A stretch of 32,000 nt of DNA from Methanocaldococcus jannaschii DSM 2661 (lineage in GTDB: Archaea > AGJL01 > Methanococci > Methanococcales > Methanocaldococcaceae), in assembly GCF_000091665.1 (NCBI RefSeq), contig NC_000909.1, forward strand, positions 293,538-325,537, read 5' to 3'. Under the pieces are notes generated by a model. The model ran no database searches. It was not told where the DNA came from and saw only the letters and a program-made list of their open reading frames with translations. Below are positions 10,545 through 32,000 of this stretch, piece after piece. The position numbers were made by a program, and so were the translations under genes. How positions within the stretch are numbered: position 1 is the first letter of the stretch; each line of letters opens with the position of its first letter.

Positions 10545-10774
10545 ATGATTTAACAGCCTAACAGAGCTTTTTTGATATAGTCCAGTATTAAACTAATGTT
10601 ATTTTAAACTTATACTCTAACAAAATTTTAGAGGACTATGATTTTTTAAGTTGTGCATAACTGGACTAAAATTTGATACGGTAAGATATTGATGAATTTG
10701 AAGATAAAAATATAATTGCTTATAAAAAATATGAAAGTGAAACCCCCCGCAACCCTCCGAAACCATTGTCAATT

Positions 10775-11215
10775 TTAAAGGTCAATGTCATCAGCCCCCT
10801 CTTTATCTTCAGTAAGTTGCAATAGCTCCTTCATCTCTCTTATGGCCATAACTAAATTCCTACCAGCAACTTCTTTTTCCCTCGCTGTTGCCTTTGGATT
10901 TTCCAAATCTTTTTTTGCGGTTTTAATCATTGTAAATAAACCTTCCAAAGCCAATCCAAAATTATTCGCAATCTCCTTATACATTTTTGAGTAAATTTCG
11001 GTAGTTTCTTCTTCTATTGCTTCAAGTAGCTGAGGCTTTACATGGTTTTGCATGTGCCTTAAAATCGCACTGTATGAGATGTCTTCGTTATACTTTTCTT
11101 TTAAATATTTTGATATTTTTTTAGCTCCCCAGCCCTGGAAATATAATGCTTCTATCTCAGCCCTGTGTGGAGAGTTGCAGACTTTACATAATTTATTATT
11201 TGTATTATTTGGCAT
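10775..11215 (-). CDS. Zn-ribbon plus HTH DNA-binding protein, possibly a small terminase subunit or regulator
   Basis: CKVCNSPHR followed by [30 protein letters not shown]. Translationally coupled to the portal gene (TAA-A-ATG, GAGGGA RBS). Confidence 0.45.
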
Positions 11216-11216
11216 T

Positions 11217-13067
11217 TTAATCCCTCACAGGTGTTATTGTGCATCTACAACCGTATCCTAATGGTGGCACTAATTCAGGTCTTTCAGCAGGTACAAAGAT
11301 GAGCCCATGCAGTTTTCTATGGCTTGGTCTAACTCTTTCATCTTTCATTGTGACATATATTACCTTGTCATTCCAGAACCTTCTCGCTCTTGTCAGATTA
11401 TAGGTTTTGTTCATCTCCTCACGAGCCCTCATCTGCAATCTTGAACCCTTAACATCTTTTGCAACTTTTTTAAGATTCTTTGCAATTTCTTCTTCACCAA
11501 GTCCTTTTTGAATTCCCTCTGTAAGAACATCAAGGAACTGTTGGCTATATGATGAATATATGTTGTAGAATGCCTGTTCCCAATGTTGTTTTAGTATATC
11601 AATAGTTTGCTGGTCTAAGTCATCATATATCTTCAATGAATTGAGTGTAGGGGCTACGTAGTCAAGGAAGAACATATCCACTTCTTCTCGAGTGAATTCC
11701 CTTAATAATTCATCCCAATCTTGCATAAGTTCGTTATATCCAAGCCTTTCATACGTTTCAAGTATCCAATTTACAAAATTTTCCATTGATTTTTTGCCGA
11801 ACTTATCTCCCACTTTTTCTAATTTGCTGATTATTTTTTCCAAACTTTTACGCTTTTTTTCTAATAATTTTTGTTTTTCTTCATCTGCGTATTCTAAACC
11901 TCCTTTACCCTCTTTTGCCATTTTCAATAGCTTCTCAACTTCTTTTTCAGTTAAATCAGGATATGCCGCAAGTATTTCTCCAAATTCATTGCTTGGGAAG
12001 ATTCTTTCAATCAATGCACTGAAGTCATATTTGGCTACCTGTTCTTGTGCCTTTAATTCTGCAACCATTTTTGCTTTTTGCAACATATTAATTTCCCAGT
12101 CAGGGTCTGGATTCGCAAATTTAACCCAGATGCCTTTGTATCCCATTTTTTCTAACTGGTCTGCAATCCATCTTTCAATTTCCTGCTGATACCCTTGAAC
12201 AATTCTTAATATGTTCCTATCTACAGTCCTTGATGTTGTGAGCTCCTGCCCAGATGCTTTTACAATACTAATTGAAGTCCCCAATCCCATGAATATGGCA
12301 CTGTCATAGTAATACAGCATTGTTTCTATCAAATCAGTTGGGATGTCTTTTCCTATGCTTATTGTTTCAAATTTTACTTCATCAGGAGTTGCAGGAATAT
12401 ATACTCTGGTTCTATTTTGGTGATTTGATAGTGCCTTTTTTATTATCTCTCCTGCTTTAGTGTTTTGAGTAATCCCTATAATTGTTGGGATTAGGGTTTT
12501 CTGAACCATGAGTGGCAATACTTTTAAAGCAAGTGTGTTTTTTTGGTCTGCAATCTCTTGGATTGTTTCATGTATTGGTATTGGATTGTAATATACTCCC
12601 AAATACTTTTCATCATAAAATTCAACATCCGCAGGAAAGTGTTGTCTTAGCTCCATTGGTGCAATTACAACCCTAACATCCTCTTCTGTATCAACTTCCC
12701 ACCATCTTTCGGCATTATTCCTTTTAATTGTGTATGTGATGCAATACTCATATCTTCCTTTTTGTGGATTCCAATGTTTCCTTTCCTTAAAGTTCATTGA
12801 ATTCGGATTGATGTAATGCAATTTGTAGAGGTAGCATTTTCCTTTCAGTAAAAAATCAGAAAATGCTAATTGTAAGTCCCTTATGTGTCTATCAATCAGT
12901 CCTGAAATCTCATCAATTACATCTTTGGATAGTTGCTTCCCATCAATTGATACTATTGAGTATGGTGTAAAGATTTGAGTGAATAAGATTCTCAATGCCA
13001 TATTTACAGCAGTATCTTTTGCTAAGTCAATACTAACAGTCTCCATTTGAATTTTATCATCTTCCAT
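11217..13067 (-). CDS. portal-like protein fused to a Mu F / SPP1 gp7-type head morphogenesis domain
   Basis: 616 aa, directly downstream of TerL. The C-terminal [36 protein letters not shown] matches the Phage_Mu_F signature (R.sH..l.G....P.h.nCRC). Confidence 0.65.
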
Positions 13068-13076
13068 AGTATCACC

Positions 13077-14726
13077 TTAAAAGAAACTTCCAAACTCAAA
13101 TTCCTCAAATTCTTCTTCATCGTCAAACACTTGGCGGTATGAGTAATCCTCTTCATCAATTGCATTCACATTGTGGGTAATGCAATTATAGGCACTTGAG
13201 ACAACAGCATCTGCTAAGTCAGGACTACCTTCACCGAAATAGATTACTTTATCCCCATCTATTTGGTGTTGGAGGATTTGAGTTCTTAGTTTTTGCCAAA
13301 TATCTTCATTGCATCGAATTTCGATTTTTGCTTTTTTCCGTTTTACACCAGTTGCATCATAGTATTCTTTTGTCCCTTCTACGAGTTCTTGGAATGTTGT
13401 CCATAGTTTGACGTGTTTAGATAGCCTTTCACCTTTGAATTTTTGTATAAAATATTCACTTTGGAATCTGTCAAATGTGAATTTAACTGAAAAATGGTTT
13501 TGTAAATGATTGTAAAACTTCTCTAAACTTAAATAATCAATCTTATGTCCAAGCGTTGGAGTAAGAACAATAATGTCTGAAATTATAACCTTCCCTTTAT
13601 CGAAATAACTTATCGCAATTACGCCCTTATCTCTGTTAATCGCAAGGTCAGTATGGCAGTAAATGGTTTTATCTGTGCTTTGAAGTTGTTTAAACTCCAA
13701 TCTTATCAAATTGTTTTCATAAATTGCCCTCCATGTGAATAATCCCATTTCCACTTTATGCCTTGCTTCCAGAGCTTCTAAACTGATGAAATAAGCGTTC
13801 AATTCAGGAGGTTCGCATTCATACATACATCTTGCAAGGATTGGGTTCTTTTGGTATTGTGCTTTAAAGTCTTCTTTTGAAACCCTTGTATTCACTTCCC
13901 ATGTTTTCCCTTTGAATGTATATGCCTCATCGACTGCCTTATAATCAAGATATAATCTATATCCTACGTCATCTCTCGGATTTGGAGTTGGAAATCTTGT
14001 CCATGTGATTGCTACGACTCTTGCTTTATCTTTGAATCTTGACTTTGCAGAACTTAACCCTTGTTCAAATAATTGCTCTGCATTTTTAAAATCTGGGTCG
14101 CTTATCTCATCAGCTACAACGCATAGGGCATTCATCCCTTCAAATGATGTTGCTCTTGAGTGACCTGAGTGCATTGTTATTTTATCTCCTATCTCTGCTT
14201 TTGTTTCCAATACACATATAGGGGCTTTTTGTCTTTTTTTCTTATCTATCCCTATCATTTGCCATACTTTGCATTTAAGAAACCATGCTTTAAACTCTTT
14301 GAAAAAAACATTCTTTGCTAAATGGTCATTGGGGGCAACATTAACAAAATCAATTCTTGTGAATTTTTCATAATAATCTTCTACACAAGCTCGGAACATC
14401 ATATAATTGAACAATAATGAAACCATGAAGTCCTTACCGCCACCTTTTCCAATAATCAATATATTAATGGGATGTTCAACCATATTGAGTAATATTTCTT
14501 TCTGTTTTTCGGTTATTGTGTGCAAATCCATTGTTATTTCACAGAATTCTATAATATTTAATGATTTTAATTTGTCAATTAACTCATAGAATAGCGGAGG
14601 GAAGTTATGTTTATTCAGTTTTTGAGGTATGGGAATATCTAACTTTTTGCAGAGTTCTAAAAATATTTTTTTATTGAAAGTTTTCTTTTTGAGAGATTCT
14701 CTCACTAATTCGACGATATACATCAT
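13077..14726 (-). CDS. terminase large subunit
   Basis: 549 aa. Walker A-like IIGKGGGKD, Walker B LCVVADE, and nuclease-domain acidic motifs HTDLAINRDKGVIAISY and DLADAVVSSAY. Confidence 0.8.
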   Translation of the reverse strand: MMYIVELVRESLKKKTFNKKIFLELCKKLDIPIPQKLNKHNFPPLFYELIDKLKSLNIIEFCEITMDLHTITEKQKEILLNMVEHPINILIIGKGGGKDFMVSLLFNYMMFRACVEDYYEKFTRIDFVNVAPNDHLAKNVFFKEFKAWFLKCKVWQMIGIDKKKRQKAPICVLETKAEIGDKITMHSGHSRATSFEGMNALCVVADEISDPDFKNAEQLFEQGLSSAKSRFKDKARVVAITWTRFPTPNPRDDVGYRLYLDYKAVDEAYTFKGKTWEVNTRVSKEDFKAQYQKNPILARCMYECEPPELNAYFISLEALEARHKVEMGLFTWRAIYENNLIRLEFKQLQSTDKTIYCHTDLAINRDKGVIAISYFDKGKVIISDIIVLTPTLGHKIDYLSLEKFYNHLQNHFSVKFTFDRFQSEYFIQKFKGERLSKHVKLWTTFQELVEGTKEYYDATGVKRKKAKIEIRCNEDIWQKLRTQILQHQIDGDKVIYFGEGSPDLADAVVSSAYNCITHNVNAIDEEDYSYRQVFDDEEEFEEFEFGSFF

Positions 14727-15130
14727 CTCATCCTTTTAATGACTTTTTCCACGATTTTCGGTAAATCTTTTTGGACTTTTTTCAATGCGGGCTGTATAAA
14801 TGGTCTTGCTGGAATGTTCTTTTTCTTACTCCCAAATTCATGAACTCCAGCATACACCATGTTATTGAAAACTTTCACTTGCAAACCTTTTGAAGTGATT
14901 TTCACCTTACTATCTGTTGCTTTTAATAATGCTCCATGATAAATTAATCCTTTGGTGTTCCTACCTTCCTTTTCTTTCCTTTTTTGATAATCTTTGCTTA
15001 ATGGTTTCCATTTCAATTCTTTCTTCTGAAAACCCCTTTGTATATTGTCATCAACTTCAGCAACCAACTCTTTCTCAATCTCATGAGCCAACTCTTTTTT
15101 AAATTCCCGCACCCATTGTTTGTAGTCCAT
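14723..15130 (-). CDS. HK97 gp10-family protein (tail completion / head-tail joining)
   Basis: MVYAGVHEFGSKKKNIPARPFIQPALKK matches the gp10-family core (yA..vEfG....pa.PF..PA). Stop/start overlap with TerL (ATGAGATGATGATG). Confidence 0.6.
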   Translation of the reverse strand: MDYKQWVREFKKELAHEIEKELVAEVDDNIQRGFQKKELKWKPLSKDYQKRKEKEGRNTKGLIYHGALLKATDSKVKITSKGLQVKVFNNMVYAGVHEFGSKKKNIPARPFIQPALKKVQKDLPKIVEKVIKRMR

Positions 15131-15134
15131 AAAA

Positions 15135-15455
15135 TCACTTCAATTTAAGTGGTTTTCCAGTTAGGATTAAAACTGCAACGTAAGCCCCCAATATTTGATG
15201 CCCATACGCCTCTGCAATATCCTCTTTTGTATATCCTTCACAAGCCAATTCTATGACTTTTAGATAGTTTAAAGTTCCATTTTCAAGCCCGTGTTTAATT
15301 GCCTTGTCTATTGCTGCAATAACTTCTTCTTTAATATCGTCTGGAACTCCAAAAGCAGAATTTATAACTCTCAGAATCCTATCATTTGCATCAGAGTTGC
15401 TTAAATTATGTGTGCGTTGGTTTTCTTTCTCATCTAATTTTTTCCATAAAGACAT
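15135..15455 (-). CDS. hypothetical provirus protein (106 aa)
   Basis: ATG at 15455 after a GGGGG run. Lies in the operon with neighbouring genes. Confidence 0.5.
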   Translation of the reverse strand: MSLWKKLDEKENQRTHNLSNSDANDRILRVINSAFGVPDDIKEEVIAAIDKAIKHGLENGTLNYLKVIELACEGYTKEDIAEAYGHQILGAYVAVLILTGKPLKLK

Positions 15456-15481
15456 GCTAACCCCCAATAAGTTTTATGAAT

Positions 15482-15862
15482 TCAATTAGAATCATCAACA
15501 ATTGTGATAATGCAGGAGGCAGAATCTTTGAAGCTATTACTACTCCTGCCAGAGATTCTATTGCCCTCATCAGGATGTAACGTTTTAGCTTTTTCTTTAA
15601 GTCTAATGATTGAGTTGTCTGTAGTTTCATCACTGCCCACTTTAATTTCCCTAACTCTTTGATGAGGAGGTTTGAAATAGTTAATAACATACGGCACAGC
15701 TTTTTTGCTAAGGACAGGTATATAGAGGAGAAAAAACAATAATGAGAAAATTCCAAAAACAGCTAAAGTCAATGCCATTGATTGGTATAGTTTTTTTAGA
15801 TAGAAAACTAATTCCAAAACACAAAACAATACTACAAATCCGATAACTGTTTGTTTGTCCAT
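15482..15862 (-). CDS. membrane protein with two N-terminal TM helices. Its 3' part overlaps a second same-strand ORF (15457-15756).
   Basis: ATG at 15862 after GGTGA. TM segments VIGFVVLFCVLELVFYL and LTLAVFGIFSLLFFLLYIPVL. Confidence 0.5.
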   Translation of the reverse strand: MDKQTVIGFVVLFCVLELVFYLKKLYQSMALTLAVFGIFSLLFFLLYIPVLSKKAVPYVINYFKPPHQRVREIKVGSDETTDNSIIRLKEKAKTLHPDEGNRISGRSSNSFKDSASCIITIVDDSN

Positions 15863-15866
15863 ATTT

Positions 15867-16130
15867 TCACCATTCATCAATTATTACCAATCGTTTTCCC
15901 GAAGCCTTTAGCAATTTTAAAACTGTTGAGATTCTTGGGTCCTGCAACTCATTATTTTTGATTTTGTGAAGTGTGCCTTTTCCAAGACCTGTTTCTTTAG
16001 AATACCTGTATATTGAACCTTCATTAACAATTTTGCTAAGCTCTTGCATCAATTGTTCAACGTTCTTTATTTCTTTCCCTTGAACGCCAATGATAAAAAT
16101 TGCCTGTTTTGAATCGGAGTCTGTCATCAT
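15867..16130 (-). CDS. XRE/Cro-like HTH protein, first gene of the minus-strand operon
   Basis: SIYRYSKETGLGKGTLHKIKNNELQDPRISTVLKLLKASGKRL is a typical Cro/C1 HTH. ATG at 16130. Confidence 0.6.
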   Translation of the reverse strand: MMTDSDSKQAIFIIGVQGKEIKNVEQLMQELSKIVNEGSIYRYSKETGLGKGTLHKIKNNELQDPRISTVLKLLKASGKRLVIIDEW

Positions 16131-16275
16131 GTTATCCCCGTATTTCTCTTTGTTCAAACTTATATTTATACTTTATTTCACTTAAATGAAACAATATTTA
16201 AATAATAGAAATGATAAAAATCTTTTTGGGGCTACCCCACTCTGCTATTTTGTTCAAAATTGTTAGGTGAGCAAA
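16131..16275. promoter_or_regulatory. divergent promoter / switch region of the provirus
   Basis: 145-bp gap between divergent operons. TATA-like CTTATATTTATAC (16159-16172) and ATATTTAAATAA (16193-16204). Short GC hairpin TGGGG-CTA-CCCCA (16226-16238). Confidence 0.5.
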
Positions 16276-16575
16276 ATGGGGTTATTCAAAAAAGAGAAAG
16301 ACAATGGTGTAATTGATGACTTAGTTCCTAAAAAAAGTGATTATGTTGAGAAGATTGCTCAAGAAGCTATAAGAAAAGACAAAGTTGATGCATTAGTTAG
16401 AAAACATGAGATGGAGCAGTTCTATCACGAAGTTTCTCAAAATGAGAAAATTGCAGAATTAAAAGCAGAATTAGCTAAGAAAGAAAAAGAAATCGAAGAA
16501 CTTAAAGAGGAGATTAGGGGCTTAAAAGGGAAAGCAGGAGGTCTTGGAATCGGAGGTAGCCAAGTTACAAGGTAA
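16276..16575 (+). CDS. coiled-coil protein (99 aa), function unknown
   Basis: ATG at 16276 after AGGTGA. IAELKAELAKKEKEIEELKEEIRGLKGKAGG. Confidence 0.5.
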   Translation: MGLFKKEKDNGVIDDLVPKKSDYVEKIAQEAIRKDKVDALVRKHEMEQFYHEVSQNEKIAELKAELAKKEKEIEELKEEIRGLKGKAGGLGIGGSQVTR

Positions 16576-16638
16576 GGTTGAAGTTCTGGAAAAAATAATC
16601 TTAAAAAAACTCTAATTTTTTCTTTTTGAGGGAGAGAT

Positions 16639-17382
16639 ATGCAGTCAATATTCCTTCCAGTTTTAAATCCAACAACGATTGATGGGCAAGAAATAACTGA
16701 AGAGTGGATTAAAAAATACGGTCCTACGTTGAGGGGTAAGCCCGTCAATATTGACCATAATTATTATTCTAATGGAAATCTCGCAGTTGGGGACGTGGTT
16801 GATGTTTATTTTAATCCCGAGGGCAACCTCTATGCCCATATAAGAATCTTCGATGAGATTTATTGGCGTTTGGTAGATAATGGAATAAAAATCAAGGGAG
16901 TTTCTTTTGAATTTAACGATGATGGTGTTGGCGAAGAAGGTATTATGAAGGGCTTAGCTCTCTGCTTAGAGTCGGACCCGAAAGTAGATTTTGCGAGGTT
17001 GGTTGAAGGGAATTATGTTCTCGAAGTTTTGGCATCAATTAAGAGGGATAGTATGGACACTAAGACACAGGAAAAAACTGAACCTAAAAAAATTAAAGAC
17101 ATGACAGAAGAAGAATTTGAGAAGTTCTTACATGAGAAAATTGAGCAAATATTGGCTTCCCATAAAAAAGAAAATGAAGACAAGGATAAAAGCGACAATG
17201 AAGATGATAAGGTTGTTGAAATACTCGCTTCTAAAATGGATGAATTGGTTGCAGTGAATAAGTCAGTATTAAAACAGCTTGAAGAAATTAGGAAAGCCCA
17301 AAAGGAAATTCTCGCATCCGCACCAGTGCCTCCTTCTGGTTCTGGAAATTCGGGTCATAGAAGAGCGAATCTGGGATTATAA
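16639..17382 (+). CDS. HK97-family (S78-like) prohead protease domain fused to an acidic coiled-coil scaffold-like C-terminus
   Basis: GKPVNIDHNYYSNGNLAVGDVVDV...VDNGIKIKGVSFEF fits the l.nHd....iG...g.i.g.S.gF pattern. The C-terminal half is acidic and coiled-coil (KKENEDKDKSDNEDDK...). Confidence 0.6.
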   Translation: MQSIFLPVLNPTTIDGQEITEEWIKKYGPTLRGKPVNIDHNYYSNGNLAVGDVVDVYFNPEGNLYAHIRIFDEIYWRLVDNGIKIKGVSFEFNDDGVGEEGIMKGLALCLESDPKVDFARLVEGNYVLEVLASIKRDSMDTKTQEKTEPKKIKDMTEEEFEKFLHEKIEQILASHKKENEDKDKSDNEDDKVVEILASKMDELVAVNKSVLKQLEEIRKAQKEILASAPVPPSGSGNSGHRRANLGL

Positions 17383-17391
17383 GGTGAGAAT

Positions 17392-17751
17392 ATGACTACT
17401 GAAAACATCATCTCTGGCATAGCAATTGCAGACCTCGCACCATACAGATTTGGAAAAATAACTTCAACTGGAATTGGATTTGGAACTTCAACAGTGAGTG
17501 ATGATAGCATATCAATAGATGCGGATGGAGTCATTATTAACAGCAGGGCGATTTACACAGCTGGAATGTATGTTGATTTAAAAGTTAATGGTGTTCAGAA
17601 AGTTGAAATTAAGGAAGGAGAATCAATAGCCCCAGGGGATTATGTTATTCCAAGCACTGATGGCAGTGGCAAGGCAGTTAAAAGCCCGATTAAGGCAGGG
17701 TTCAAAGTGGCATCTGTTGAGGGGAATTACTGCACTATTATTTTGAGATAG
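17392..17751 (+). CDS. small head protein, DUF2190-like, possibly a decoration protein
   Basis: 119 aa between protease-scaffold and capsid (like lambda D before E). Gly-rich beta-type sequence with the ...[18 protein letters not shown] motif. Confidence 0.4.
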
Positions 17752-17758
17752 AGGTGAG

Positions 17759-18547
17759 ATGATGGCACTTAATGAGTATGATGCTCAAATTGTAGAGCAG
17801 GCAATGAAACCAATACTTGATTCAAACTTATTTTCAAGGAAAATTTTCCAAAAAAAGAAAATTCCTGAAGATGTGGAGGTTTATAATTTAGTTCAAGTTG
17901 TGTTTGATGAAAATGCGTTTAAAAAGGGTTCAATGGAATTGACAGAAGTTCCAATTAAGACAACAACCTCACCATTCACAGTATTTGACATTAATCTGAA
18001 AGTTACAAAAGCGAGGAGGTTTGTTGAAGGACCTAATGCTGACTATAATAAAGCACAAATTTTTGAAGGTCTCGCAAAGGTTGTGGCAAGGGCTGAAAAT
18101 CAATACTCAATTGATGCATTGAGTAAAAACAATACAGCAGTGGGTGCATCAGCATCATGGAATGGTGCAGATACCACTCCAGATAAAATAGCAAATGACA
18201 TCATAGATGCAAAAACAAAGATTGAGCAGTATTCAAATGCAAAATGTGCGTTAGTAGCTCCAGTTGATGCAATTGCATGTTTTAGGAAAATAGGAACTCA
18301 AGGTTTTAGTGCTTATGATGAAACAAAGGATTTCATTAAGGAAATCATCCCAACAAACTTAATCACTGATAAATCTGCATATTTAGTCCCAATTGATATT
18401 GCAATTCTTCAAATGGGAGTAGCTGTGGAGGCAGACCAATTTATTGAAAAGAAAGCGACTCAGGTTGAGTTTATATTTACAGAGGCAATAAGCCCTATGG
18501 TTAAGGAAAAGAATGGAATTATTAAGATTCAAAAAGTATTGGGATAA
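17759..18547 (+). CDS. putative major capsid protein (HK97-fold expected)
   Basis: 262 aa. The call rests on position after the protease/scaffold and before the connector genes, plus a strong GAGGTGAG RBS. No direct motif recognised. Confidence 0.5.
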
Positions 18548-18550
18548 TGC

Positions 18551-18865
18551 GTGATTTTTATGGTTGATGTTTCGGAAATTTTAGCGAAGATGAAGCCCCT
18601 CTTAGGAATGAGTGCTGATGAAGAATTTGCCAATCCTGAACAAGCAGAGGCATCTGCAAACTTAGCAATAAAAACATCCCAGGTTGAAGACGTTGATATT
18701 ATTGCCATATTGGCTTGCTATTACTACACTGAATCAAGGGATATGAAAACTGACGAAAACGTTTCAGTTATGGCTAATCACTTTTATAGAATGTATCAAA
18801 TTGCTATTGAGGAAGCAAAACAGAAGGAATTAAATGAAGAAGAGGGGGCGGTGTTCTTTGACTAA
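18551..18865 (+). CDS. head-tail connector/adaptor (gp6-like) candidate
   Basis: About 100 aa, right after the capsid gene. GTG at 18551 or ATG at 18560. Confidence 0.4.
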
Positions 18866-19861: not shown

Positions 19862-19870
19862 GGTGATTAA

Positions 19871-23270: not shown

Positions 23271-23279
23271 GGTGATATT

Positions 23280-23822
23280 ATGGCCGTACTTGCATCATCC
23301 ACAGAACCAGAACCTACAGAGTCATTACTACAACAAACTAATGAATTATTAATTATTGGCAAAGGAGCTATAGTTTATAAAGAATTCACTACTGGGGTAG
23401 ATGCGAGAATTATAGACTCTCAAACGATAGGAATAGGGATTCCATTTAATTATTATCCGTTTATGTGTATGGTATTAGATGATGCAGGTAATGGAATACC
23501 AATGCAAGAATTTACTTCAGCACCTGGCAGTTTAACTGTAAAAGTAGCAGCAACATTGGACTCTACAAAAACTTATAAAATAATTGCATTTTTGATTGGA
23601 GACTCAATGAAAATAATAACATCCATTCAAAGTCAATCTGGAACTGTCACTGAGATTGCTCCAGGATTTGGAATATTTAAAGTCATTTACAATGACACTG
23701 AGGGAACTGACACACTAACAATAAATTATGATGATGGAACCAGTGAAACAATAACAGTTGATAAAAGTAACTTATGGACTGTGTTACCAATGCAACTACC
23801 AGATGCAGAAAGGGTAGCATAG
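23280..23822 (+). CDS. distal-tail-protein-position ORF (180 aa)
   Basis: Immediately follows the tape measure gene. Confidence 0.45.
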   Translation: MAVLASSTEPEPTESLLQQTNELLIIGKGAIVYKEFTTGVDARIIDSQTIGIGIPFNYYPFMCMVLDDAGNGIPMQEFTSAPGSLTVKVAATLDSTKTYKIIAFLIGDSMKIITSIQSQSGTVTEIAPGFGIFKVIYNDTEGTDTLTINYDDGTSETITVDKSNLWTVLPMQLPDAERVA

Positions 23823-23833
23823 TGGTGATTGTT

Positions 23834-24727
23834 ATGCCTCCTCTAATCTCAAACAATACTTTTTTTTTGATGAATACTACAAACGATGGCAATGGTGGCA
23901 GTGTTAGTTACGATTATCCACTTTTATCCAATCAAAACTCACTGATAACTAACACAACGAACAATTTAACTTCAGACTCAACAAACACCGACATTTCTAA
24001 TGAAACTCCAATACTGTCCAACAATACTCCAATTCTAATGAATACACCAACTAATCCAAATTCAGATTCTGATACTACAACTCCTACTGTTGTTTCACAT
24101 ACAGTTGAATTAATCACCGAAGAGAAAAAAGTCATCTCAAAAATAGTTTATTCAGATGGAACAGAAGATGTGAAAGAGTTGGATTTAACCGATTTCTACA
24201 ATAGTGCTTACAATGAAGGATATTCTGCAGGTGTGAATTCAGTTGATTTTAGTAAAACAGGTTACATAATTGAAAATGGAATTATCAAAGTAACAACTAC
24301 ACTAACTAATGGAAAATCACAAGAATATAACATTACTCTTGATGAAAACTTAGTTGTTAGTTTATATAACCAAATAATGGCTAATAAAAGTAGCTGTTTC
24401 CAAATTAGACAGAATGAAACAGAATACAGCTTTTTAGTTGAAAGTAGGCAATATCAACCACAACCAAACTTAGCATATCAACCAGCCGTAGATGGAACGC
24501 CAGTTTATGAAGTGTTAGGACAGGAACAAAAAACTTGGAGTTTCACTCTTTATGTTGATTCAATTCCAAAAATGCAATTCTTACAACAGTTAGCAAGTAA
24601 TCCCCTGATAGAAGTTTATTTTGATGAGATTGGTGATTGGAAACAGGCTTTAATTCAGAGTATTTCCTTGTCAAGGATAACTACTGGACATTATTATGCT
24701 GATATTGAACTTATAATTTTAGAATAA
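23834..24727 (+). CDS. tail/baseplate protein with an Asn/Thr/Ser-rich N-terminal region
   Basis: ATG at 23834 after GGTGA. The first ~90 aa are low complexity with at least six N-X-S/T sequons. Confidence 0.55.
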   Translation: MPPLISNNTFFLMNTTNDGNGGSVSYDYPLLSNQNSLITNTTNNLTSDSTNTDISNETPILSNNTPILMNTPTNPNSDSDTTTPTVVSHTVELITEEKKVISKIVYSDGTEDVKELDLTDFYNSAYNEGYSAGVNSVDFSKTGYIIENGIIKVTTTLTNGKSQEYNITLDENLVVSLYNQIMANKSSCFQIRQNETEYSFLVESRQYQPQPNLAYQPAVDGTPVYEVLGQEQKTWSFTLYVDSIPKMQFLQQLASNPLIEVYFDEIGDWKQALIQSISLSRITTGHYYADIELIILE

Positions 24728-24736
24728 GGTGATAAA

Positions 24737-25042
24737 ATGGAAGACATGATTACTCTTACAGACGAAAGAAAGACAGTCAAATTTGAAAATCTTCCAGAAA
24801 TTTATGTTAGAGTTCATGATGAAGCCAAAGGTTTAGTTTTAACTGTTAAGAATCCTTACGATACGGATGTATATGCTAAAGTGTATTATGCTCCTGATGG
24901 AGAAAATTATGACACTGTAACTTCTGAAGTTGTTAAATACGATTACCAAGCACAAAAAACAGAATTAATACCCATTAAGCACCCATATATGAAAATATCA
25001 TTTGATTCTGCTGTTTCAGGGTGGGTGTCATATATAAAATAA
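24737..25042 (+). CDS. small tail-module protein (101 aa)
   Basis: AGGTGA RBS. Lies in the operon. Confidence 0.5.
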   Translation: MEDMITLTDERKTVKFENLPEIYVRVHDEAKGLVLTVKNPYDTDVYAKVYYAPDGENYDTVTSEVVKYDYQAQKTELIPIKHPYMKISFDSAVSGWVSYIK

Positions 25043-25052
25043 AGGTGATACT

Positions 25053-25508
25053 ATGGGATTTGACCCAGTAACTTTTGCAAAAATAAAGAAAATTTCAATA
25101 GATTCAAATGCAGATGGATACATCGACTACGCAAATCAGGCAGGAAATGCTGATAAGTTAGACGGAAAAGATGCATCAGATTTTTTATCAATTGATTCAT
25201 TTAAAGATTTAAAAGAAGATAATGGATACATAAAATTTCCAACGGGGCTTATTATGCAGTGGGGGAAGGTTTATGTCAATAATACCACATCATATCAAGA
25301 AATTCCTGTAAATTTTACCATTGAATTCCCGAACAAATGTCTAAACGTATTTGCATCAATATATGAGGGTTCTGGAGTTGATAATGACTATATCAAATGT
25401 ATAACAAGAATTGCAAACATTACAACTAAAGGGTGTGTTGTTTGTATTACAGATATCAGTGGTGCAAGTGGAGATGTAGGATTTTTCTGGTTTGCAATAG
25501 GATATTAA
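25053..25508 (+). CDS. tail-fibre-like protein (gp53-like C-terminal receptor-binding-type domain)
   Basis: AGNADKLDGKDASDF motif, common in phage fibre proteins. GLIMQWGKV... with FFWFAIGY at the C-terminus. Confidence 0.55.
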   Translation: MGFDPVTFAKIKKISIDSNADGYIDYANQAGNADKLDGKDASDFLSIDSFKDLKEDNGYIKFPTGLIMQWGKVYVNNTTSYQEIPVNFTIEFPNKCLNVFASIYEGSGVDNDYIKCITRIANITTKGCVVCITDISGASGDVGFFWFAIGY

Positions 25509-25525
25509 AGTATATGGTGTAAAGT

Positions 25526-26077
25526 ATGAAAACAATTGTCATAGATAAATCAATGTCCGTAGATATAGAGTATTCAATTAATGCCATTGACCAGTGTAAT
25601 ATAACTTCATTGAAAGATTTACAAATCCAACCTTTTGACCAATGTATTATACTTTGGAATGATAAAATAATTTTCAGAGGATATTGCATTGATGCAAGAT
25701 TATCACAGAGTTTTGGACAGCAACAGTATGAATATACTATTAACAGCCCCCTCTGGATTCTAAGCCAGCAAAAAACTACGGCAAAAACTACATTTTTACA
25801 GATTTTCTTAAAAGAGTGTTGCAATTTATGTAATTTGGAACTGGATTATCAATTAGATTCAAATCCACTGATTTACATTGAAGAAAGTAGTTATTTTGAT
25901 GCATTAAAAAAGTGCATACTTTATACAAAAAACTACAATACAAGATTTTACGTTGATTATGAATACAATTCATTAATTTTTACAGATAAAATTTCAGGAC
26001 AACATCCAAAAGAAGAGAAAGTTGTCGGTTATGAATTTGAATGGGATACTGAGATTATAAACCAAGTAAGGTGGTAA
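25526..26077 (+). CDS. baseplate/tail-tip component candidate (183 aa)
   Basis: Operon position only. Confidence 0.4.
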   Translation: MKTIVIDKSMSVDIEYSINAIDQCNITSLKDLQIQPFDQCIILWNDKIIFRGYCIDARLSQSFGQQQYEYTINSPLWILSQQKTTAKTTFLQIFLKECCNLCNLELDYQLDSNPLIYIEESSYFDALKKCILYTKNYNTRFYVDYEYNSLIFTDKISGQHPKEEKVVGYEFEWDTEIINQVRW

Positions 26078-26079
26078 TA

Positions 26080-28458
26080 ATGCCCTTTGTTCATTACATT
26101 GATGAAGAAAATTTCGATGATAAATTAAAAGAATGGACACTTGGTTTGAACAGTGATTATGTGAATCCTTATGATTCTGGTGAGACACAATACATTAACA
26201 GTAATTACCCCTGGCCAGCCAATATAAACAGTTTATCATCCAAAATATGCGAAATGGGTCTAATTGAGATGGATGGAGTTGAAATTAGGAGTGTTCCACT
26301 TCACTGGGTATCTACAGTATCAGTTCCAACAGCTCCAAGTTCATCCTTTGTTTTCAATATCCCATCGATGTTCCAGGAATGTATGTATGAATGTCATATT
26401 TACAATCTACCACCTGATGCAGGCGTCACTGCTACATATAATGCATATTTTGACAACAATTTTCCAATTCCATACAAATACACTCTTACCATACAAACAT
26501 CTGCTGATGATATGTTTAATAATCAAGATTACAAAATTTGGATGAATGGAACATGGGGGCCGAGTTTTCATATACCTGAAAGTGGGACTAAAATCCTTGA
26601 GTTTCCAATTAAGTATGGAAAATTGAATATATCATTTGGTATCTCTGGAAGTTCTCTCACTGTAACTCTAATGTGGATTATTGAGAATAACAATATAAAC
26701 GACTTCTTTGACCCAGATACGGAGGATTATTGGCAATTGATAGGGCGGAACATCAACATTGTCTTTGGTAACTTCCTACCAAAACACTTCCCAAGAGGTT
26801 ACATCAATCCAATTCAAAACCGAACATATTTGGAGAAAAGAATACTTAACACTGGTGATGCGAGTAACCCAACCACAATAGAATACCTTTGGGGGTCTGT
26901 AACTCTTCTTCCTGATTTAGAAAGTTGGCAGTTTTATGACGATAAGGGTAACTCTGTAGATTCAAAATATGCCACAATCAGTGATGATGGATATGTTAGT
27001 ATTTATTATGAGGAAATGATAAAAGATGGCTACTTCCCAAAGGCAATATATCTCTGGACTGTTCATAAAGAGTCATATCTTGAAGCTGAACCAAGCATTG
27101 GAACCTTTGAACGTAATGAAGAATCTGGGGTGTCAGAAAGATGTGATTTTGACATTATCGCATTCAAAAAGAAATATACGGGCAACTTATTAACTTGCGT
27201 TCCTCTTATTGTGTATTTTAGACCTTGTGAAGTTCCATTGGGAGATATTAACAAATGGGGCTGGCAACCATACATTTACTACTTTGACACTTACAACGTC
27301 AAACCATACTGTGAAAAGTTCATCGTAAGACCCAAGTGTATATGTTATAGGAATTCCGACCCAAATGAAAAAACAATCACATTCGACATAGAATATGAGA
27401 TAAATGTGGATACTAAATACTTGGGTTGGTTCCAACCTGAACTTAGATTATATTATGGCGGTGTTTTAGTAGATTCAAAAACTGGAGATGTAAGCAATTT
27501 CACTTACACATTTAGAATGCCACAAAATACCATTGAAACTTATGAAATGAAACTTTTTATTGGAGGAGTTGAGGTTGCGAAAGAACAAATAATAGTTGAA
27601 AGACAAAAATACTGTCATAGTTTATCAATTGAAGCAAAAACTTATGACAAAGAAGGAAATGAAACTGATAAATTCCCACATCCAACGAGTGCAGATTATG
27701 ATGAAAATAAACACTCTGAAATAATTGTTAAAATAAAAATAAAAGATGAGCAAGGCAATTATATTGATGTTCCAATTGAAAACATATTTATTAATTGGCA
27801 ATATCCTCTGAATAAAATAAACACTGGAATTTATGAAGTAAGAATACCAAACACTGCCGATAATGCACTGAATATTCAAGATTATGGAATTGCAATCTAT
27901 ATAGACAAAGATTGGTGCGATGAAAACGGCTATTACAACAAATACAACATTGAAGCCGAAAATGTAATAATAAATAGCGACAAAATAGAAAGAATTGGTT
28001 TGTGGAACTTTGAAGGAATAACTGGCTATGAAAATGGAACCACTTTACTAAATCAGGTTTATGAAACTGTATCTGGAACATTTGTAAATCCAATATGCGA
28101 ATTTAGTGTAGTAGAACAACTGAATGAAGACAGGGACTTAAAACAATATAGTTATTGTTATAGGATTTATGGCAGCCCAATGACGTTAAATTTACCAACT
28201 TATACTGATGATGAGTTAAAAGAACTCGCTAAGGCAATAGTTAGAGAAATGGGACAACCAAGGAAAATAGAAACCTTCACAATCCTAAGTAAAGAACTTC
28301 AAAAAATAAACAGTTCAATTACTGTAGATTATAATGGACAACTAATTTCAATGCCTGTATATTCTGTAAGATTCAGTTTAGAAAACTCGAACATTCAAAT
28401 TCAAATAAGAAACGACCAGTTAAAATTGTTGAAAGATTACTTATCATTAATTAAGTAA
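26080..28458 (+). CDS. large tail-tip / host-recognition candidate (792 aa)
   Basis: ATG at 26080 after AAGGTGG. Last and largest gene of the tail operon. No recognisable domain. Confidence 0.5.
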   Translation: MPFVHYIDEENFDDKLKEWTLGLNSDYVNPYDSGETQYINSNYPWPANINSLSSKICEMGLIEMDGVEIRSVPLHWVSTVSVPTAPSSSFVFNIPSMFQECMYECHIYNLPPDAGVTATYNAYFDNNFPIPYKYTLTIQTSADDMFNNQDYKIWMNGTWGPSFHIPESGTKILEFPIKYGKLNISFGISGSSLTVTLMWIIENNNINDFFDPDTEDYWQLIGRNINIVFGNFLPKHFPRGYINPIQNRTYLEKRILNTGDASNPTTIEYLWGSVTLLPDLESWQFYDDKGNSVDSKYATISDDGYVSIYYEEMIKDGYFPKAIYLWTVHKESYLEAEPSIGTFERNEESGVSERCDFDIIAFKKKYTGNLLTCVPLIVYFRPCEVPLGDINKWGWQPYIYYFDTYNVKPYCEKFIVRPKCICYRNSDPNEKTITFDIEYEINVDTKYLGWFQPELRLYYGGVLVDSKTGDVSNFTYTFRMPQNTIETYEMKLFIGGVEVAKEQIIVERQKYCHSLSIEAKTYDKEGNETDKFPHPTSADYDENKHSEIIVKIKIKDEQGNYIDVPIENIFINWQYPLNKINTGIYEVRIPNTADNALNIQDYGIAIYIDKDWCDENGYYNKYNIEAENVIINSDKIERIGLWNFEGITGYENGTTLLNQVYETVSGTFVNPICEFSVVEQLNEDRDLKQYSYCYRIYGSPMTLNLPTYTDDELKELAKAIVREMGQPRKIETFTILSKELQKINSSITVDYNGQLISMPVYSVRFSLENSNIQIQIRNDQLKLLKDYLSLIK

Positions 28459-28509: not shown

Positions 28510-28827
28510 TCACTTAAATCCAAATAATAATTTTATCAACTCTATGGCATTAGGATTAGTTATAATTATAGCAAATAAGATTATCAAAGTGTGTATAATA
28601 AGCTTATATTCTAATTCTTTCTTAACCATTTCAATTTTCCCGTCTAAATATTTAATGTCTTCCTTTGTAGCCAATTCACCCCTCAACTCATCCTTTAATT
28701 CAGTTTTAACTGCAAGTTTTTCCTCTTTAACAATCTCTATAATTGCATTATACAACTCCTCTGCCTCTTTTTCATCCTTAACCTTTTTAAGTATCAACTC
28801 ATATAACTTAGCATAGGCAACTGCCAT
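28510..28827 (-). CDS. coiled-coil protein with C-terminal TM anchor (DUF1640-like)
   Basis: ELKDELRGELATKEDIKYLDGKIEMVKKELEYKL followed by IIHTLIILFAIIITNP. GGTGGTG RBS. Confidence 0.55.
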   Translation of the reverse strand: MAVAYAKLYELILKKVKDEKEAEELYNAIIEIVKEEKLAVKTELKDELRGELATKEDIKYLDGKIEMVKKELEYKLIIHTLIILFAIIITNPNAIELIKLLFGFK

Positions 28828-28874
28828 AACACCACCACGTAATCATTAATCTCTATTTTTAAGCTCAAAGTATA

Positions 28875-29141
28875 TTAAAGTTGTTCATTTGGTATCATTT
28901 CAACCTTCTCTTTTAAGTCCCTAATCGTCTCTTCATTAAACTTTATCATCTTAATACAATTCTCAATCTCAATCTTTAATAACTCTTCTGTTAATTTACA
29001 GCCCTTACCTCTAATTAAATATAAAGTTCTCTTATAATCAGCTATTTTATTTCTAAGCTTTAGATTTTCTCTTTTCAAATGATTTATTTTAATAATCAAC
29101 TCTATTCTCTCAGTTCTACAACCATGCCTAACTTTTGCCAT
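28875..29141 (-). CDS. coiled-coil protein (88 aa)
   Basis: GGTGA RBS. Heptad-rich sequence. Confidence 0.5.
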
Positions 29142-29161
29142 AGAATCACCAAAAAAAGAGT

Positions 29162-29572
29162 TTAAAACTCTGTCAATTTTTTAACACCAACAACCCTTAA
29201 ATCTTCCATGTGTTCTGGCTTGATGACAACACCAACCTCCCCATCCACAGTAATCACAGCAGGAAAATCTACATCATAATAACACTGCACATCTTTAATA
29301 TTATATCCCATTGATTTTAATATTGTCAAAGCCGCATTTACCAAATCAGGAGAATACCTAACTCCATTTTCAGCCGCATCCATGCAAAACTCAGCAATAA
29401 TCTTTGTCTTAGATTTCGTAGTCTCTGAATCATTAATATAACATTGGCACCTATTAACCAGCAACCTTCTTAATTCAGAGTTCAACCTCACTATTCCAAT
29501 TGTCCATTTCCCATTTACAACACCAGACTCTAAAACTTCCAACAACTTAGCCCTTATATCAGAATTCTCCAT
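29162..29572 (-). CDS. hypothetical protein (136 aa)
   Basis: ATG at 29572 after GGAGGTGA. Confidence 0.5.
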
Positions 29573-29641
29573 GATTTCACCTCCAAAAGTTTTGGGACTC
29601 ATTTTTTCCACCATATCATCACCAAAAAAATTTTAAAAAAA

Positions 29642-30361
29642 TTAATAAGTGATAATCACATACGACTTTCTCTTTTTAGCTTCAGCTATTACCATCTGCA
29701 AATACTTTGGCTCAATAATGTGCTTTAGTGCGTTCCTTATCGCCTTTGAAGCTAAGACAGTATATTTAAACTCCTCTCCCATTCTACCAGGACTTACCCT
29801 TTCAGCAGTACCTACCATAACGATGTTTCTCTTCAAATCCCTGACCCTACACGTTGCTATAATTTTTCCATTAACCTCTTGGAAAGTTGGGGGCTCTACC
29901 TCAATATTTCCCTGCATCCTCATTGCTTTAACAATTCCTGCCCATGAGAGAATTATCTTCTCCTTTCCTGTTTTTTTATCAGGATAAGTATATGCCAAAG
30001 GTAGATGCTCATTAGCTTCATCCAGTAACATTAAATCCTCATCCAACGAATCCATCTTTTCAATAACATCATCCAACGAATCAACCTTTTCAGCAGTTTT
30101 CTCTAAGACCACCATTGCATTGTTTGATGCCTTAACCTCAATACTATTCCCATTCTTATTCATCCTCTCCTCCTCCCTAAGCTTTTTAAATTCATCCTTA
30201 AGCTCCAAGGTTTCTAACCATTTGACAAATGCCGCACTTTCATCAATCCAATTATTATGCTCCTTTCTGATTTCTTCAACTTGCTTTTTAATCTCCTCAA
30301 CTTCAATCTCTACACCATACACATTCTTATGAGCCTTTGCAGCTAACTCATACTTGCACAT
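29642..30361 (-). CDS. hypothetical protein. The C-terminal half weakly resembles Rad52/Sak-type single-strand annealing proteins.
   Basis: GGAGGG RBS. ILSWAGIVKAMRMQG...GKIIATCRVRD...VLASKAIRNALKHI loosely follows the SSAP pattern. The N-terminal half is an acidic coiled coil. Confidence 0.5.
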   Translation of the reverse strand: MCKYELAAKAHKNVYGVEIEVEEIKKQVEEIRKEHNNWIDESAAFVKWLETLELKDEFKKLREEERMNKNGNSIEVKASNNAMVVLEKTAEKVDSLDDVIEKMDSLDEDLMLLDEANEHLPLAYTYPDKKTGKEKIILSWAGIVKAMRMQGNIEVEPPTFQEVNGKIIATCRVRDLKRNIVMVGTAERVSPGRMGEEFKYTVLASKAIRNALKHIIEPKYLQMVIAEAKKRKSYVIITY

Positions 30362-30602
30362 TCAAATCCCTCCGATTAACTTTCAACATGCCAAAATCCT
30401 TTTTCTCTCCCTCCAAAATCTGCCTCCTCAACCTTTTAAACAACTTTTTCCCAACCTTCACAACCCTAATCTTATCACTCAAACACTCAATATTCTCCCT
30501 CCTCCTCTCAAACTCATCAACATCCTTAGCCACACCAAAAGAAACAGGCTTTCCACCTAAATAAACGATAAAATAGATTTTATTTGATGAATATCGCATC
30601 AT
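30348..30602 (-). CDS. hypothetical basic protein (84 aa)
   Basis: Overlaps the downstream start by 14 nt (operon coupling). Confidence 0.5.
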   Translation of the reverse strand: MMRYSSNKIYFIVYLGGKPVSFGVAKDVDEFERRRENIECLSDKIRVVKVGKKLFKRLRRQILEGEKKDFGMLKVNRRDLNVQV

Positions 30603-30756
30603 AGCCCTCCCTCCTAATCTCAGAACATAACCTAACCCTCAGTTTCCTAATCAAATCCTCAGCTTCCTCCAACTTCAAAATCGCTCCAACAGTGTCTCCA
30701 TTATTATAATCACTCCATGCTCTTTCCAATAATTCTATAGCTTTATTTATTTGCAT
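30580..30756 (-). CDS. small hypothetical protein (58 aa), absent from the supplied ORF track
   Basis: ATG at 30756 after AGGTGA. Hand translation gives MQINKAIELLERAWSDYNNGDTVGAILKLEEAEDLIRKLRVRLCSEIRREGYDAIFIK. Overlaps the start of the next gene. Confidence 0.45.
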   Translation of the reverse strand: MQINKAIELLERAWSDYNNGDTVGAILKLEEAEDLIRKLRVRLCSEIRREGYDAIFIK

Positions 30757-30830
30757 ATTCTCACCTACAATTATTTGCTCCTAAATACCAAAAATATTTA
30801 AATAGAAAACTCGAAAAAGAAAAAATGCCT

Positions 30831-31160
30831 CTATGCAACAACTACTTGAAAAACATCTGTAGGAATCTCTTTAACTCTACCATTAACTATCTTAGATTTT
30901 GAATAAATCTCTTCCAAAAACTCTCTAACTTTCTTAGCATCCGTTTCTAAAATGCACTTAAAAGAATAATTCTCAAAACATGAGTATTTAATTTCCTTAT
31001 CGCTTAAAAACTCAAACCCCATAATCCACATTCTGCCATCGAACCTTAATAAGAACTCATTAGGATTGACACTACTAATTTTAATCTGCCTGTAACCCTT
31101 CTTAATCGCAAGTTTTATCATCTCTTTAACTTCATCTGGTGTCTTCTTAAACCTCAACAC
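30831..31160 (-). CDS. hypothetical protein (109 aa)
   Basis: GTG start after GAGGGTGG. Overlaps the upstream stop by 7 nt. Confidence 0.5.
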
Positions 31161-31417
31161 GCTTCCACCCTCAAGTTGGTTTTGGCTTTATCTCCGCTTT
31201 CAAAGCCAGCTCTCAAATCAATAATCTTATTAGGAAAATCAGTAATCATCTTAGTAATCCAATCCGCAGCTTCTTCAGCATCTCCTTTAGCCTTTATTTT
31301 AACCTCTCCACCACTGTATCTGATGATAACAAAACTCCCAACATTTGAGATTTCTTTAATCTCCTCAACATTGATTCTCTTAGTTTCACTACCTTTTTTG
31401 ACGACTAAGAACTTCAT
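31154..31417 (-). CDS. hypothetical protein (87 aa), first gene of the small-ORF block
   Basis: ATG at 31417 after GGAGGGTTGATT. Confidence 0.5.
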
Positions 31418-31490
31418 AATCAACCCTCCAAACTCTTTTAAAGCCAATAAATAGTGGGCTTCATCTCGCCCCGTCTAAAAAAATTATATT

Positions 31491-31600
31491 TGGTGGGGGA
31501 GGGGTTAATGGTGGGGGCCGTGTTTCAGGGCTTACATCACACCCAAGGGGTCCCAGCCGTTAAAGCTGGTTATCCTTGGGTGGTCATTTACCCACTTATT
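31491..31600. ncRNA. GC-rich island with nested stems, candidate structured ncRNA or regulatory element (strand unknown)
   Basis: About 60 of 110 nt are G/C by hand count, in a strongly AT-rich background. ACCCAAGG (31541-31548) pairs with CCTTGGGT (31574-31581), enclosing CCAGC-CGTTAAA-GCTGG. TGGTGGGGG occurs twice. Confidence 0.35.
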
Positions 31601-31660
31601 GGTGATATATCACTTCTTGGTGAGTAAGTATAATTAAACTAATATAAAAACCTTTCTCTC

Positions 31661-31695
31661 TAAAAAAGTTAATGGTGGATATTAAAAAAGTTAAT
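31661..31695. repeat. direct 13-bp repeat TAAAAAAGTTAAT x2, spaced 22 bp
   Basis: Copies at 31661-31673 and 31683-31695. The related GTTAATGGTGG occurs at 31504-31514 and 31668-31678. Confidence 0.7.
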
Positions 31696-31760
31696 AACAG
31701 CAAATAATAAAAACCGTAAAAATACATACTTCTCATAAAACGGTAATATATGGTGTTTAA

Positions 31761-31988
31761 ATGAAAGAAAAACAGAAGATATTTTTTGATGCGATTTTTG
31801 ATATTTTTAAAATAATATTTGGGTATGAGGTTGTATTTGCTGGAGCAACAATTTTGCAGACATCTTCAGGAGCTATCCCTATAAAAACAGGCTCTATTTT
31901 ATTAGTTGGAGATATTGTATTTATTATACTAACACTCCTAACTTTTGGAACTGTGCTTTATGATGCCTACCTAAAAATTGAAGATTAA
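31761..31988 (+). CDS. small 2-TM membrane protein (75 aa)
   Basis: Hydrophobic segments IFFDAIFDIFKIIFGYEVVFAGATIL and ILLVGDIVFIILTLLTFGTVL. Confidence 0.45.
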   Translation: MKEKQKIFFDAIFDIFKIIFGYEVVFAGATILQTSSGAIPIKTGSILLVGDIVFIILTLLTFGTVLYDAYLKIED

Positions 31989-32000
31989 TCAGAGCCAAAT

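Follow-up and report, generated by a model that had tools for sequence, protein, structure and literature searches.

Positions 10489-32000 of the 32,000-nucleotide stretch of the Methanocaldococcus jannaschii DSM 2661 chromosome analysed here (the window; contig NC_000909.1, positions 293,538 to 325,537) very probably constitute the left 21.5 kb of a complete, temperate head-tail provirus of 30,405 bp (Caudoviricetes), which is related to the isolated virus MFTV1, is inserted at the 3' end of tRNA-Ser(UGA) and comprises approximately MJ0328-MJ0367. A first-pass annotation made from the letters of the window had recognised a head-tail provirus at the tRNA-Ser of a hyperthermophilic methanogen, which is correct, the host being M. 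jannaschii DSM 2661; the size of ~21 kb given there is too small, as the element measures 30.4 kb. Of the two alternatives it had offered, an element longer than the window and a domesticated remnant devoid of an integrase, the former is borne out by the integrase MJ0367 and the attR found beyond the right end and by empty sites in related genomes, and the latter is contradicted by them. Exact protein matches were obtained to MJ0324, MJ0326, MJ0330, MJ0337, MJ0349, MJ0363 and MJ0367.

The only tRNA of the window is tRNA-Ser(tga), located on the forward strand at 10455-10544, as detected by ARAGORN. The attL core is a 65-bp sequence at 10489-10553 that consists of the 3' 56 nt of the tRNA and 9 further nt; the coordinates proposed earlier are good in this respect, except that the core starts inside the tRNA. 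An exact copy of this core, attR, lies outside the window at window-equivalent positions 40894-40958, ~150 bp past the integrase gene and ~8.9 kb beyond the right end, and the distance from attL to attR is 30,405 bp. The 65-bp repeat is the sole significant internal direct repeat of the element, and the tRNA-Ser stays intact, its 3' half being supplied by attL. Within the window the 3' half of the tRNA occurs only once, with up to 3 mismatches permitted, and no recombinase family of Pfam is matched by the open reading frames (ORFs) of 10545-32000, in agreement with the earlier observation that neither an integrase nor an att duplicate is present inside it. The circular viral genome would recombine with the tRNA through an attP just 3' of the integrase gene, and this recombination would bring the terminase end up to the tRNA and leave the integrase ~30 kb from it. 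The position of attP 3' of the integrase would explain why the window, which reaches 21.4 kb past the tRNA, shows neither integrase nor attR.

The upstream flank is composed of core genes, namely those of EF-1 alpha (MJ0324 by exact protein match), ribosomal protein S10, formylmethanofuran:tetrahydromethanopterin formyltransferase and an NCS2 permease (MJ0326, likewise). ARAGORN and the profile searches confirm that the gene content switches at the tRNA-Ser(UGA) to a tailed-virus morphogenesis module. Downstream of attR, a 102-amino-acid (aa) ORF is followed by topoisomerase (Topo) VI subunit A, FtsZ, SecE and Spt5. Base composition does not mark the element, since the provirus has a guanine-plus-cytosine (GC) content of 0.336 and the flank one of 0.323.

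The right part of the element was obtained from public contigs that encode exactly the last protein of the window and are 100% identical to the window in the overlap. Their rightward gene order is SecB-like protein, PadR/HxlR-type helix-turn-helix (HTH) protein, DUF2080, MCM helicase MJ0363 (Pfam MCM, 1e-71), RNase H-like exonuclease, DUF2540 and integrase MJ0367. The latter is a tyrosine integrase of 330 aa at window-equivalent positions 39752-40744 (SRR4245580_176, contig L005, 11280-12272), as evident from its matches to Pfam Phage_integrase PF00589 (9.2e-36) and PF13495 (6e-14). The DNA to the right had been pointed out earlier as the place to look for a direct repeat of the 3' part of the tRNA and for an integrase gene, and both are found there. 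Integrated attL and attR junctions are present in k=127 assemblies of a mock community (contigs L008, L010, L036-L038 and L041); according to its description, the community belongs to the study of Shakya et al., with DNA extracts from Podar and Shakya (PMC4787001).

The tRNA-Ser 3' half was further scanned in a collection holding one genome per species, which revealed five loci, each single-copy. Empty attB sites are found in Methanocaldococcus sp. 16A and two metagenome-assembled genomes (MAGs; loci L019, L020 and L021), where the tRNA is joined straight to the sequence that follows attR in M. jannaschii, and the left flank is also collinear in all three. The insertion boundaries are thus fixed independently, and the comparison with genomes lacking the insert, which had been proposed as a route to attL and attR, defines both. 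A portal-alignment scan of the one-genome-per-species contigs retrieved no relative, M. jannaschii and M. fervens included, and the stretches may be masked or absent there. As the portal and tRNA-Ser core scans retrieved no named Methanocaldococcus type genomes, missing matches in them say little on the distribution of the virus group.

A second integrase-bearing stretch adjoins the same tRNA-Ser on a MAG contig of the Methanocaldococcaceae (L023, 1539-3563), with 71% nucleotide identity to the RNase H-like/DUF2540/integrase region. Its integrase gene faces the 3' end of the tRNA, so that the arrangement is inverted as compared to that of the M. jannaschii provirus, which suggests a different element using the same tRNA-Ser site.

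Megablast analysis revealed 84% identity to MFTV1 (MT711370) over 47% of the query, the match starting with the first base past the tRNA. The integrase coding sequence of the MFTV1 record (531-1523) is followed by the tRNA-Ser 3' half (1673-1729) and then by the sequence found after the tRNA in the window. Collinear homologues exist for 30 of the 43 MFTV1 proteins, with 37-95% identity. The identity is 95% for the integrase and for the small-terminase-like protein, 93% for the tape measure and 87-94% for several connector and tail proteins, whereas it is 56% for MCM, 54% for the portal, 47% for the large terminase subunit (TerL) and 37.5% for the capsid protein.

Both genomes have the same integration core right after a 95%-identical integrase, the same gene order and an MCM-based replication module. 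They differ in the protease/scaffold protein (247 aa here and 365 aa in MFTV1), in two extra genes of the provirus (24737-25508), including a gp53-like fibre, and in the gene set between the early genes and the MCM gene, which here includes the SecB-like protein; about ten MFTV1 genes are missing from the M. jannaschii provirus. Virus species are delimited in the practice of the International Committee on Taxonomy of Viruses at ~95% genome-wide nucleotide identity, and an identity of 84% over 47% coverage therefore indicates that the two are not the same species. The comparison shows the M. jannaschii provirus to be related to MFTV1 but distinct from it, with a mosaic pattern in which the integration, tail and small-terminase-like genes are nearly identical to those of MFTV1 and the head/packaging module has been exchanged or has strongly diverged. 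The taxonomy of the MFTV1 record places it in the family Fervensviridae. It is true, as had been remarked earlier, that few tailed viruses of Methanococcales are characterised, but MFTV1 is an isolated and sequenced close relative.

Distant relatives are present in Methanococcus maripaludis (GCA_014203295, L027), Methanococcus voltae (GCA_017875395, L029) and a metagenomic contig (L025), and the hosts retrieved by the portal-family search include both Methanococcus species. These relatives share with the provirus the leftward block (small-terminase-like protein, portal with Mu F domain, TerL and neck) and the rightward block (protease/scaffold, small protein, major capsid protein (MCP) and tail), and the MCP, portal and TerL families are common to all of them. 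They differ in an MCP identity of 27-33%, in tails with recognisable SPP1_Dit and Sipho_Gp37, and in their other, mesophilic hosts.

According to a review (PMC10117752), Krupovic et al. 2010 and Thiroux et al. 2021 recognised the lysogen of M. fervens, and the Krupovic studies are the source given in PMC3543421 for the proviruses and integrated elements of Methanococcales. The M. jannaschii provirus is probably already mentioned in the papers of Krupovic et al. 2010 and Thiroux et al. 2021. A literature text search for MJ03xx or provirus names, which did not extend to the primary MFTV1 and Krupovic papers, found nothing.

After the tRNA, the ORFs of the window form a leftward block (10775-16157), a long rightward block (16267-28458) and a second leftward block (28510-31447). 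The features are as follows, with percentages denoting identity to MFTV1.

10455-10544, forward strand: tRNA-Ser(UGA), the integration target (ARAGORN).
10489-10553, forward strand: attL core of 65 bp, repeated exactly downstream.
10775-11215, reverse strand: 146-aa zinc-ribbon/HTH protein, small-terminase candidate by its position beside portal and TerL (95%).
11217-13067, reverse strand: 616-aa portal candidate, MJ0329, with a C-terminal Mu F/SPP1 gp7 head-morphogenesis domain (PF04233).
13077-14726, reverse strand: TerL, MJ0330 (phrog_2).
14723-15130, reverse strand: neck/tail-completion protein, HK97 gp10-like and Mu gpG-like (PF05069, 1.1e-6; phrog_26, phrog_222, phrog_5).
15135-15880, reverse strand: a 110-aa protein and a hydrophobic 132-aa protein, both conserved (77% and 58%).
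15867-16157, reverse strand: Cro/CI-type HTH regulator at the divergent promoter region (PF13443, PF21716; phrog_9425 and phrog_4268, 'transcriptional repressor').
16267-16575, forward strand: 102-aa coiled-coil protein, first gene of the rightward structural operon (coiled-coil matches only; 80% over 64 aa).
16639-17382, forward strand: 247-aa putative prohead protease/scaffold fusion of P2 gpO type (hhalign against gpO).
17392-17751, forward strand: 119-aa head protein, possibly scaffold or decoration (phrog_673, 'head scaffolding', 3.8e-5; gene at the same position in relatives).
17759-18547, forward strand: MCP with predicted HK97 fold, MJ0337 (AlphaFold2 and Foldseek).
18551-19157, forward strand: two small proteins of 104 aa and 107 aa, head-tail connector candidates by position (94% and 87%).
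19157-19861, forward strand: 234-aa major tail protein candidate by position and conserved size (71%).
19871-20749, forward strand: 120-aa tail-assembly-chaperone candidate and 123-aa hydrophobic protein, upstream of the tape measure, by position only (92% and 90%).
20721-23270, forward strand: 849-aa tape measure protein (phrog_58, 9.6e-18, and eight other tape-measure PHROGs; 93%).
23280-24727, forward strand: putative distal-tail proteins of 180 aa and 317 aa (40% and 68%; relatives have SPP1_Dit and Sipho_Gp37 at corresponding positions).
24737-25508, forward strand: 101-aa protein and 151-aa tail-fibre protein with a gp53-like C-terminal domain (PF21882, 2.7e-19; phrog_1396, 3e-17).
25526-28458, forward strand: 183-aa and 795-aa tail-tip/receptor-binding candidates (81%, and 69% in the C-terminal half only).
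28510-31447, reverse strand: small genes including MJ0349 of 105 aa (partial homology to MFTV1 genes in the same order; PF27276, 'MJ0349').
31761-31988, forward strand: 75-aa hydrophobic protein, the last complete gene of the window; the provirus runs 8.9 kb further.

The capsid protein was modelled with AlphaFold2. The single-sequence model was unusable (predicted local distance difference test, pLDDT, of 32) and was replaced by a model based on an 8-sequence family alignment, with a pLDDT of 79.8. Foldseek comparison of this model with the PDB resulted in 289 matches at E<=1e-3, with encapsulins at the top, and that with BFVD in 251 matches at E<=1e-3, including the MCPs of Halogranum tailed virus 1 and Haloarcula sinaiiensis tailed virus 1 (HSTV-1); all matches in both are HK97-fold shells or MCPs. 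The capsid family profile reaches the Pyrococcus furiosus virus-like particle 2e0z by sequence alone, as a borderline match (E = 4.9e-4). The model therefore predicts an HK97 fold, and the earlier capsid call is upheld by it. The capsid sequence has no Pfam, PHROG or single-sequence PDB match, a word-indexed homology search with it returned the query itself only, and its family has 10 matches among 1.84 billion representative proteins.

The encapsulins (for example 2e0z and Myxococcus xanthus EncA), with a template modelling (TM) score of about 0.7, match the capsid model best in structure, ahead of phage capsids, and are similar to it in their small size (~260 aa) and in having no delta domain. 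Unlike the encapsulin genes, however, the capsid gene is located here between the protease/scaffold and the tail genes, near terminase and portal, in an integrated virus. These gene surroundings suggest that it encodes a viral capsid protein rather than a cargo-loading compartment.

The 247-aa protein had been read as an S78-type prohead protease. It has no Pfam match to Peptidase S78 even at E<=10, and its comparison with HK97 gp4 by hhalign gives a probability of 0.6%, so the HK97 gp4/S78 identity was rejected; the sole resemblance to gp4, as read by eye from the sequences, is a His...Ser spacing of 49 residues. The protein aligns instead with the P2 gpO family. The family alignment displays invariant D15, H40 and S89 in the N-terminal ~125 aa, and hhalign of this alignment against an alignment of three gpO proteins yields a probability of 87% and E = 4e-6, with the three residues placed on D19, H48 and S107 of gpO, which form its catalytic triad. 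The weak tblastn matches of the protease all fall on P2-type gpO scaffold/protease genes, and phrog_73, the gpO PHROG, is matched by one of five family members (0.0033). Pfam Phage_GPO PF05929 is not matched by the protease, and neither single-sequence phmmer nor the family profile gave a useful match to it in the PDB. From these alignments we infer a gpO-like protease/scaffold fusion.

The C-terminal helical half of this protein contains four [IV]LAS motifs (VLEVLAS, EQILAS, VEILAS and KEILAS) in residues 130-227. The homologues of L025 and L027 have them at equivalent positions in the form [ILT][LMT]AS, and those of MFTV1 and L029 retain them in part only. The same motif also occurs near the N-termini of the putative major tail protein (19157-19861, residues 13-16) and of the protein encoded after the tape measure (23280-23822, residues 3-6). 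These motifs may be cleavage sites of the maturation protease.

The Mu F domain of the 616-aa protein is matched by PF04233 at residues 509-611 (5e-26), and phrog_2662, 'portal protein', covers residues 378-614 only. The N-terminal ~370 aa have no match in PDB, Pfam or PHROGs, nor in hhalign against P2 gpQ or HK97 gp3, and appear to constitute a Methanococcales-specific family without detectable relatives. The protein is a portal candidate on account of its Mu F domain, its size, its location beside TerL and the lack of a competing candidate; of the earlier call of a portal with a Mu F domain, the Mu F half is sustained, and the portal N-terminal domain finds no match in any library.

TerL matches phrog_2 (5e-16) over residues 72-514, its MFTV1 homologue matches TerL_nuclease (3e-4), and a Walker A-like GKGGGKD and a Walker B-like VVADE are visible in its translation, which is in accordance with the original assignment. 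Single-sequence phmmer searches and family profiles of portal and TerL against the PDB gave nothing useful, and no terminase was found there by either approach with TerL. The HK97 gp10-like call is likewise supported, as the neck protein and an HK97 gp10-family protein both fall in phrog_5. The 146-aa small-terminase candidate, presumably MJ0328, has only weak HTH matches in Pfam, and the 110-aa and 132-aa proteins match no Pfam or PHROG family.

The head region resembles that of P2 in its divergent layout, with portal and TerL on one strand and protease/scaffold followed by capsid on the other (gpQ/gpP versus gpO/gpN in P2), as well as in the putative protease domain, which aligns with gpO at matched Asp-His-Ser positions, and in the scaffold-like, helical C-terminal half. 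Unlike P2, portal, TerL and MCP have no detectable sequence similarity, the tail module is of the siphovirus type with a tape measure and not contractile, and the portal carries a Mu F domain. hhalign of portal, TerL and MCP against single P2 or HK97 proteins gave no signal. The P2-like head layout (10775-18547), with Mu F on its portal, adjoins the tape-measure tail module.

In the tail region, the calls of a tape measure and a tail fibre are confirmed by phrog_58 and PF21882, respectively. Homologues of the major tail protein candidate, 234-239 aa in length, occupy the same position in L025, L027 and L029; the 234-aa protein has no family match above threshold, nor do the 104-aa and 107-aa connector candidates have significant ones, and the 183-aa and 795-aa candidates match no Pfam or PHROG family. 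The 101-aa and 151-aa proteins are the best match of no MFTV1 protein and are absent from MFTV1. The leftward block at 28510-31447, whose genes have no functional family matches, is presumably the early/lysogeny region.

The genes at 24737-25508 vary from sample to sample. The fibre gene of run ERR9765778 is broken up into ORFs of 52 aa and 84 aa (L003, 3294-3748), and in other samples the lengths of neighbouring ORFs differ.

The interpretation of the stretch as part of a complete provirus is to be weighed against other explanations. Ordinary chromosomal genes conserved at this locus across all Methanococcales, which the first-pass annotation had named as the finding that would speak against a provirus, would agree with a GC content no different from that of the flank, but the site is empty in related Methanocaldococcus genomes, the genes correspond to those of the isolated virus MFTV1, and the capsid family, with its 10 members, is very rare; the probability of this explanation is practically nil. 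A domesticated or decayed remnant devoid of an integrase, for instance a gene-transfer-agent-like cluster kept by the host, would account for the absence of a recombinase gene and of an att copy inside the window. The integrase, the MCM module and an exact attR are nevertheless found just outside it, the att copies are identical over 65 bp, the structural genes shared with MFTV1 are all full length, and the site is empty in three other Methanocaldococcus genomes. A gene transfer agent or domesticated remnant was rejected on the basis of the integrase, MCM, the att sites and the locus being empty in relatives, and we regard it as very improbable.

Certain observations weigh against the interpretation as a complete temperate provirus. 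The sequence past the window comes from other assemblies, with an overlap that is 100% identical and proteins that carry M. jannaschii accessions. The TerL of the window itself has no Pfam match, neither the N-terminal domain of the portal candidate nor the putative major tail protein has independent support, and the neck protein is 43 aa shorter than its MFTV1 counterpart. Identity of the head genes to MFTV1, a proven virus, amounts to only 37-54%, so that functionality is not simply transferable from it. The gene set as a whole looks intact.

The contigs that bear on excision are of the attP type. SRR4245580_176 (L005, 11280-13516) leads from the integrase through att to the terminase-like gene and the portal and, with 30,430 bp, goes once round the 30,405-bp circle and overlaps itself by 25 nt; SRR4245587_128 (L035, 4001-8993) displays the same join. 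The chromosomal contig of SRR4245580 by the site is 8 kb long and broken before the tRNA, and this fragmentary state suggests a higher depth of viral DNA in that run. These contigs could represent excised, replicating virus DNA in M. jannaschii preparations, or an artefact of k=31 assembly through the repeat. The attP-type Logan contigs are taken as k=31 assemblies, in keeping with other Logan contigs that break 30 nt into each att copy. An assembly at k=31 can thread a 65-bp repeat without a spanning read if the chromosomal branches are pruned. As such threading is possible and the k=127 assemblies show the integrated form only, we regard excision as hinted at, not as established.

A complete-looking but cryptic provirus, in which excision or particle formation has been lost, would conform with the accessible literature, in which there is no report of virus production by M. 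jannaschii, with the read-supported k=127 assemblies that show integrated junctions only, and with the k=31 origin of the attP-type contigs. On the other side stand the lack of frameshifts or truncations in comparison with MFTV1 or the other relatives, the perfect att sites, the joining of integrase, att and terminase-like gene in both SRR4245580_176 and SRR4245587_128, and the closure of the 30.4-kb circle by the former in a run whose chromosomal contig breaks at 8 kb. We would give cryptic persistence an even chance. That DSM 2661 is an active lysogen, in ordinary cultures of which the MJ0328-MJ0367 provirus leaves the chromosome and is replicated as a circle of 30.4 kb, is possible, albeit rather doubtful.

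If DSM 2661 were an active lysogen, the public attP-type contigs would be real extrachromosomal viral DNA, and a second virus of a hyperthermophilic methanogen, with a head module distinct from that of MFTV1, would be at hand. If the provirus were inducible, the best-studied hyperthermophilic methanogen would have its own virus, together with an integrase/att system for genetics. As it stands, the provirus belongs to an expected kind, the MFTV1-like temperate siphoviruses of Methanococcales, of which a close relative has been described. Some forty genes of M. jannaschii labelled 'uncharacterized' or 'hypothetical' MJ03xx are now readable as those of an MFTV1-like virus, for terminase, capsid, protease/scaffold and tail among others.

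The SecB-like protein beyond the right end of the window (PF02556, 4.5e-11; L005, 3928-4395, window-equivalent about 32400-32867) is encoded in a ~3-kb stretch of the provirus that has no MFTV1 counterpart, between two distantly paralogous genes for 75-aa membrane proteins. Among archaea, SecB homologues are to our knowledge uncommon. In the chromosomal flank on the left, a 263-aa ORF at 41-832 of the window matches LAGLIDADG_3 and several HTH-type Pfam families in the precomputed annotation of an identical gene on contig L009, and may be a free-standing homing-endonuclease-like gene.

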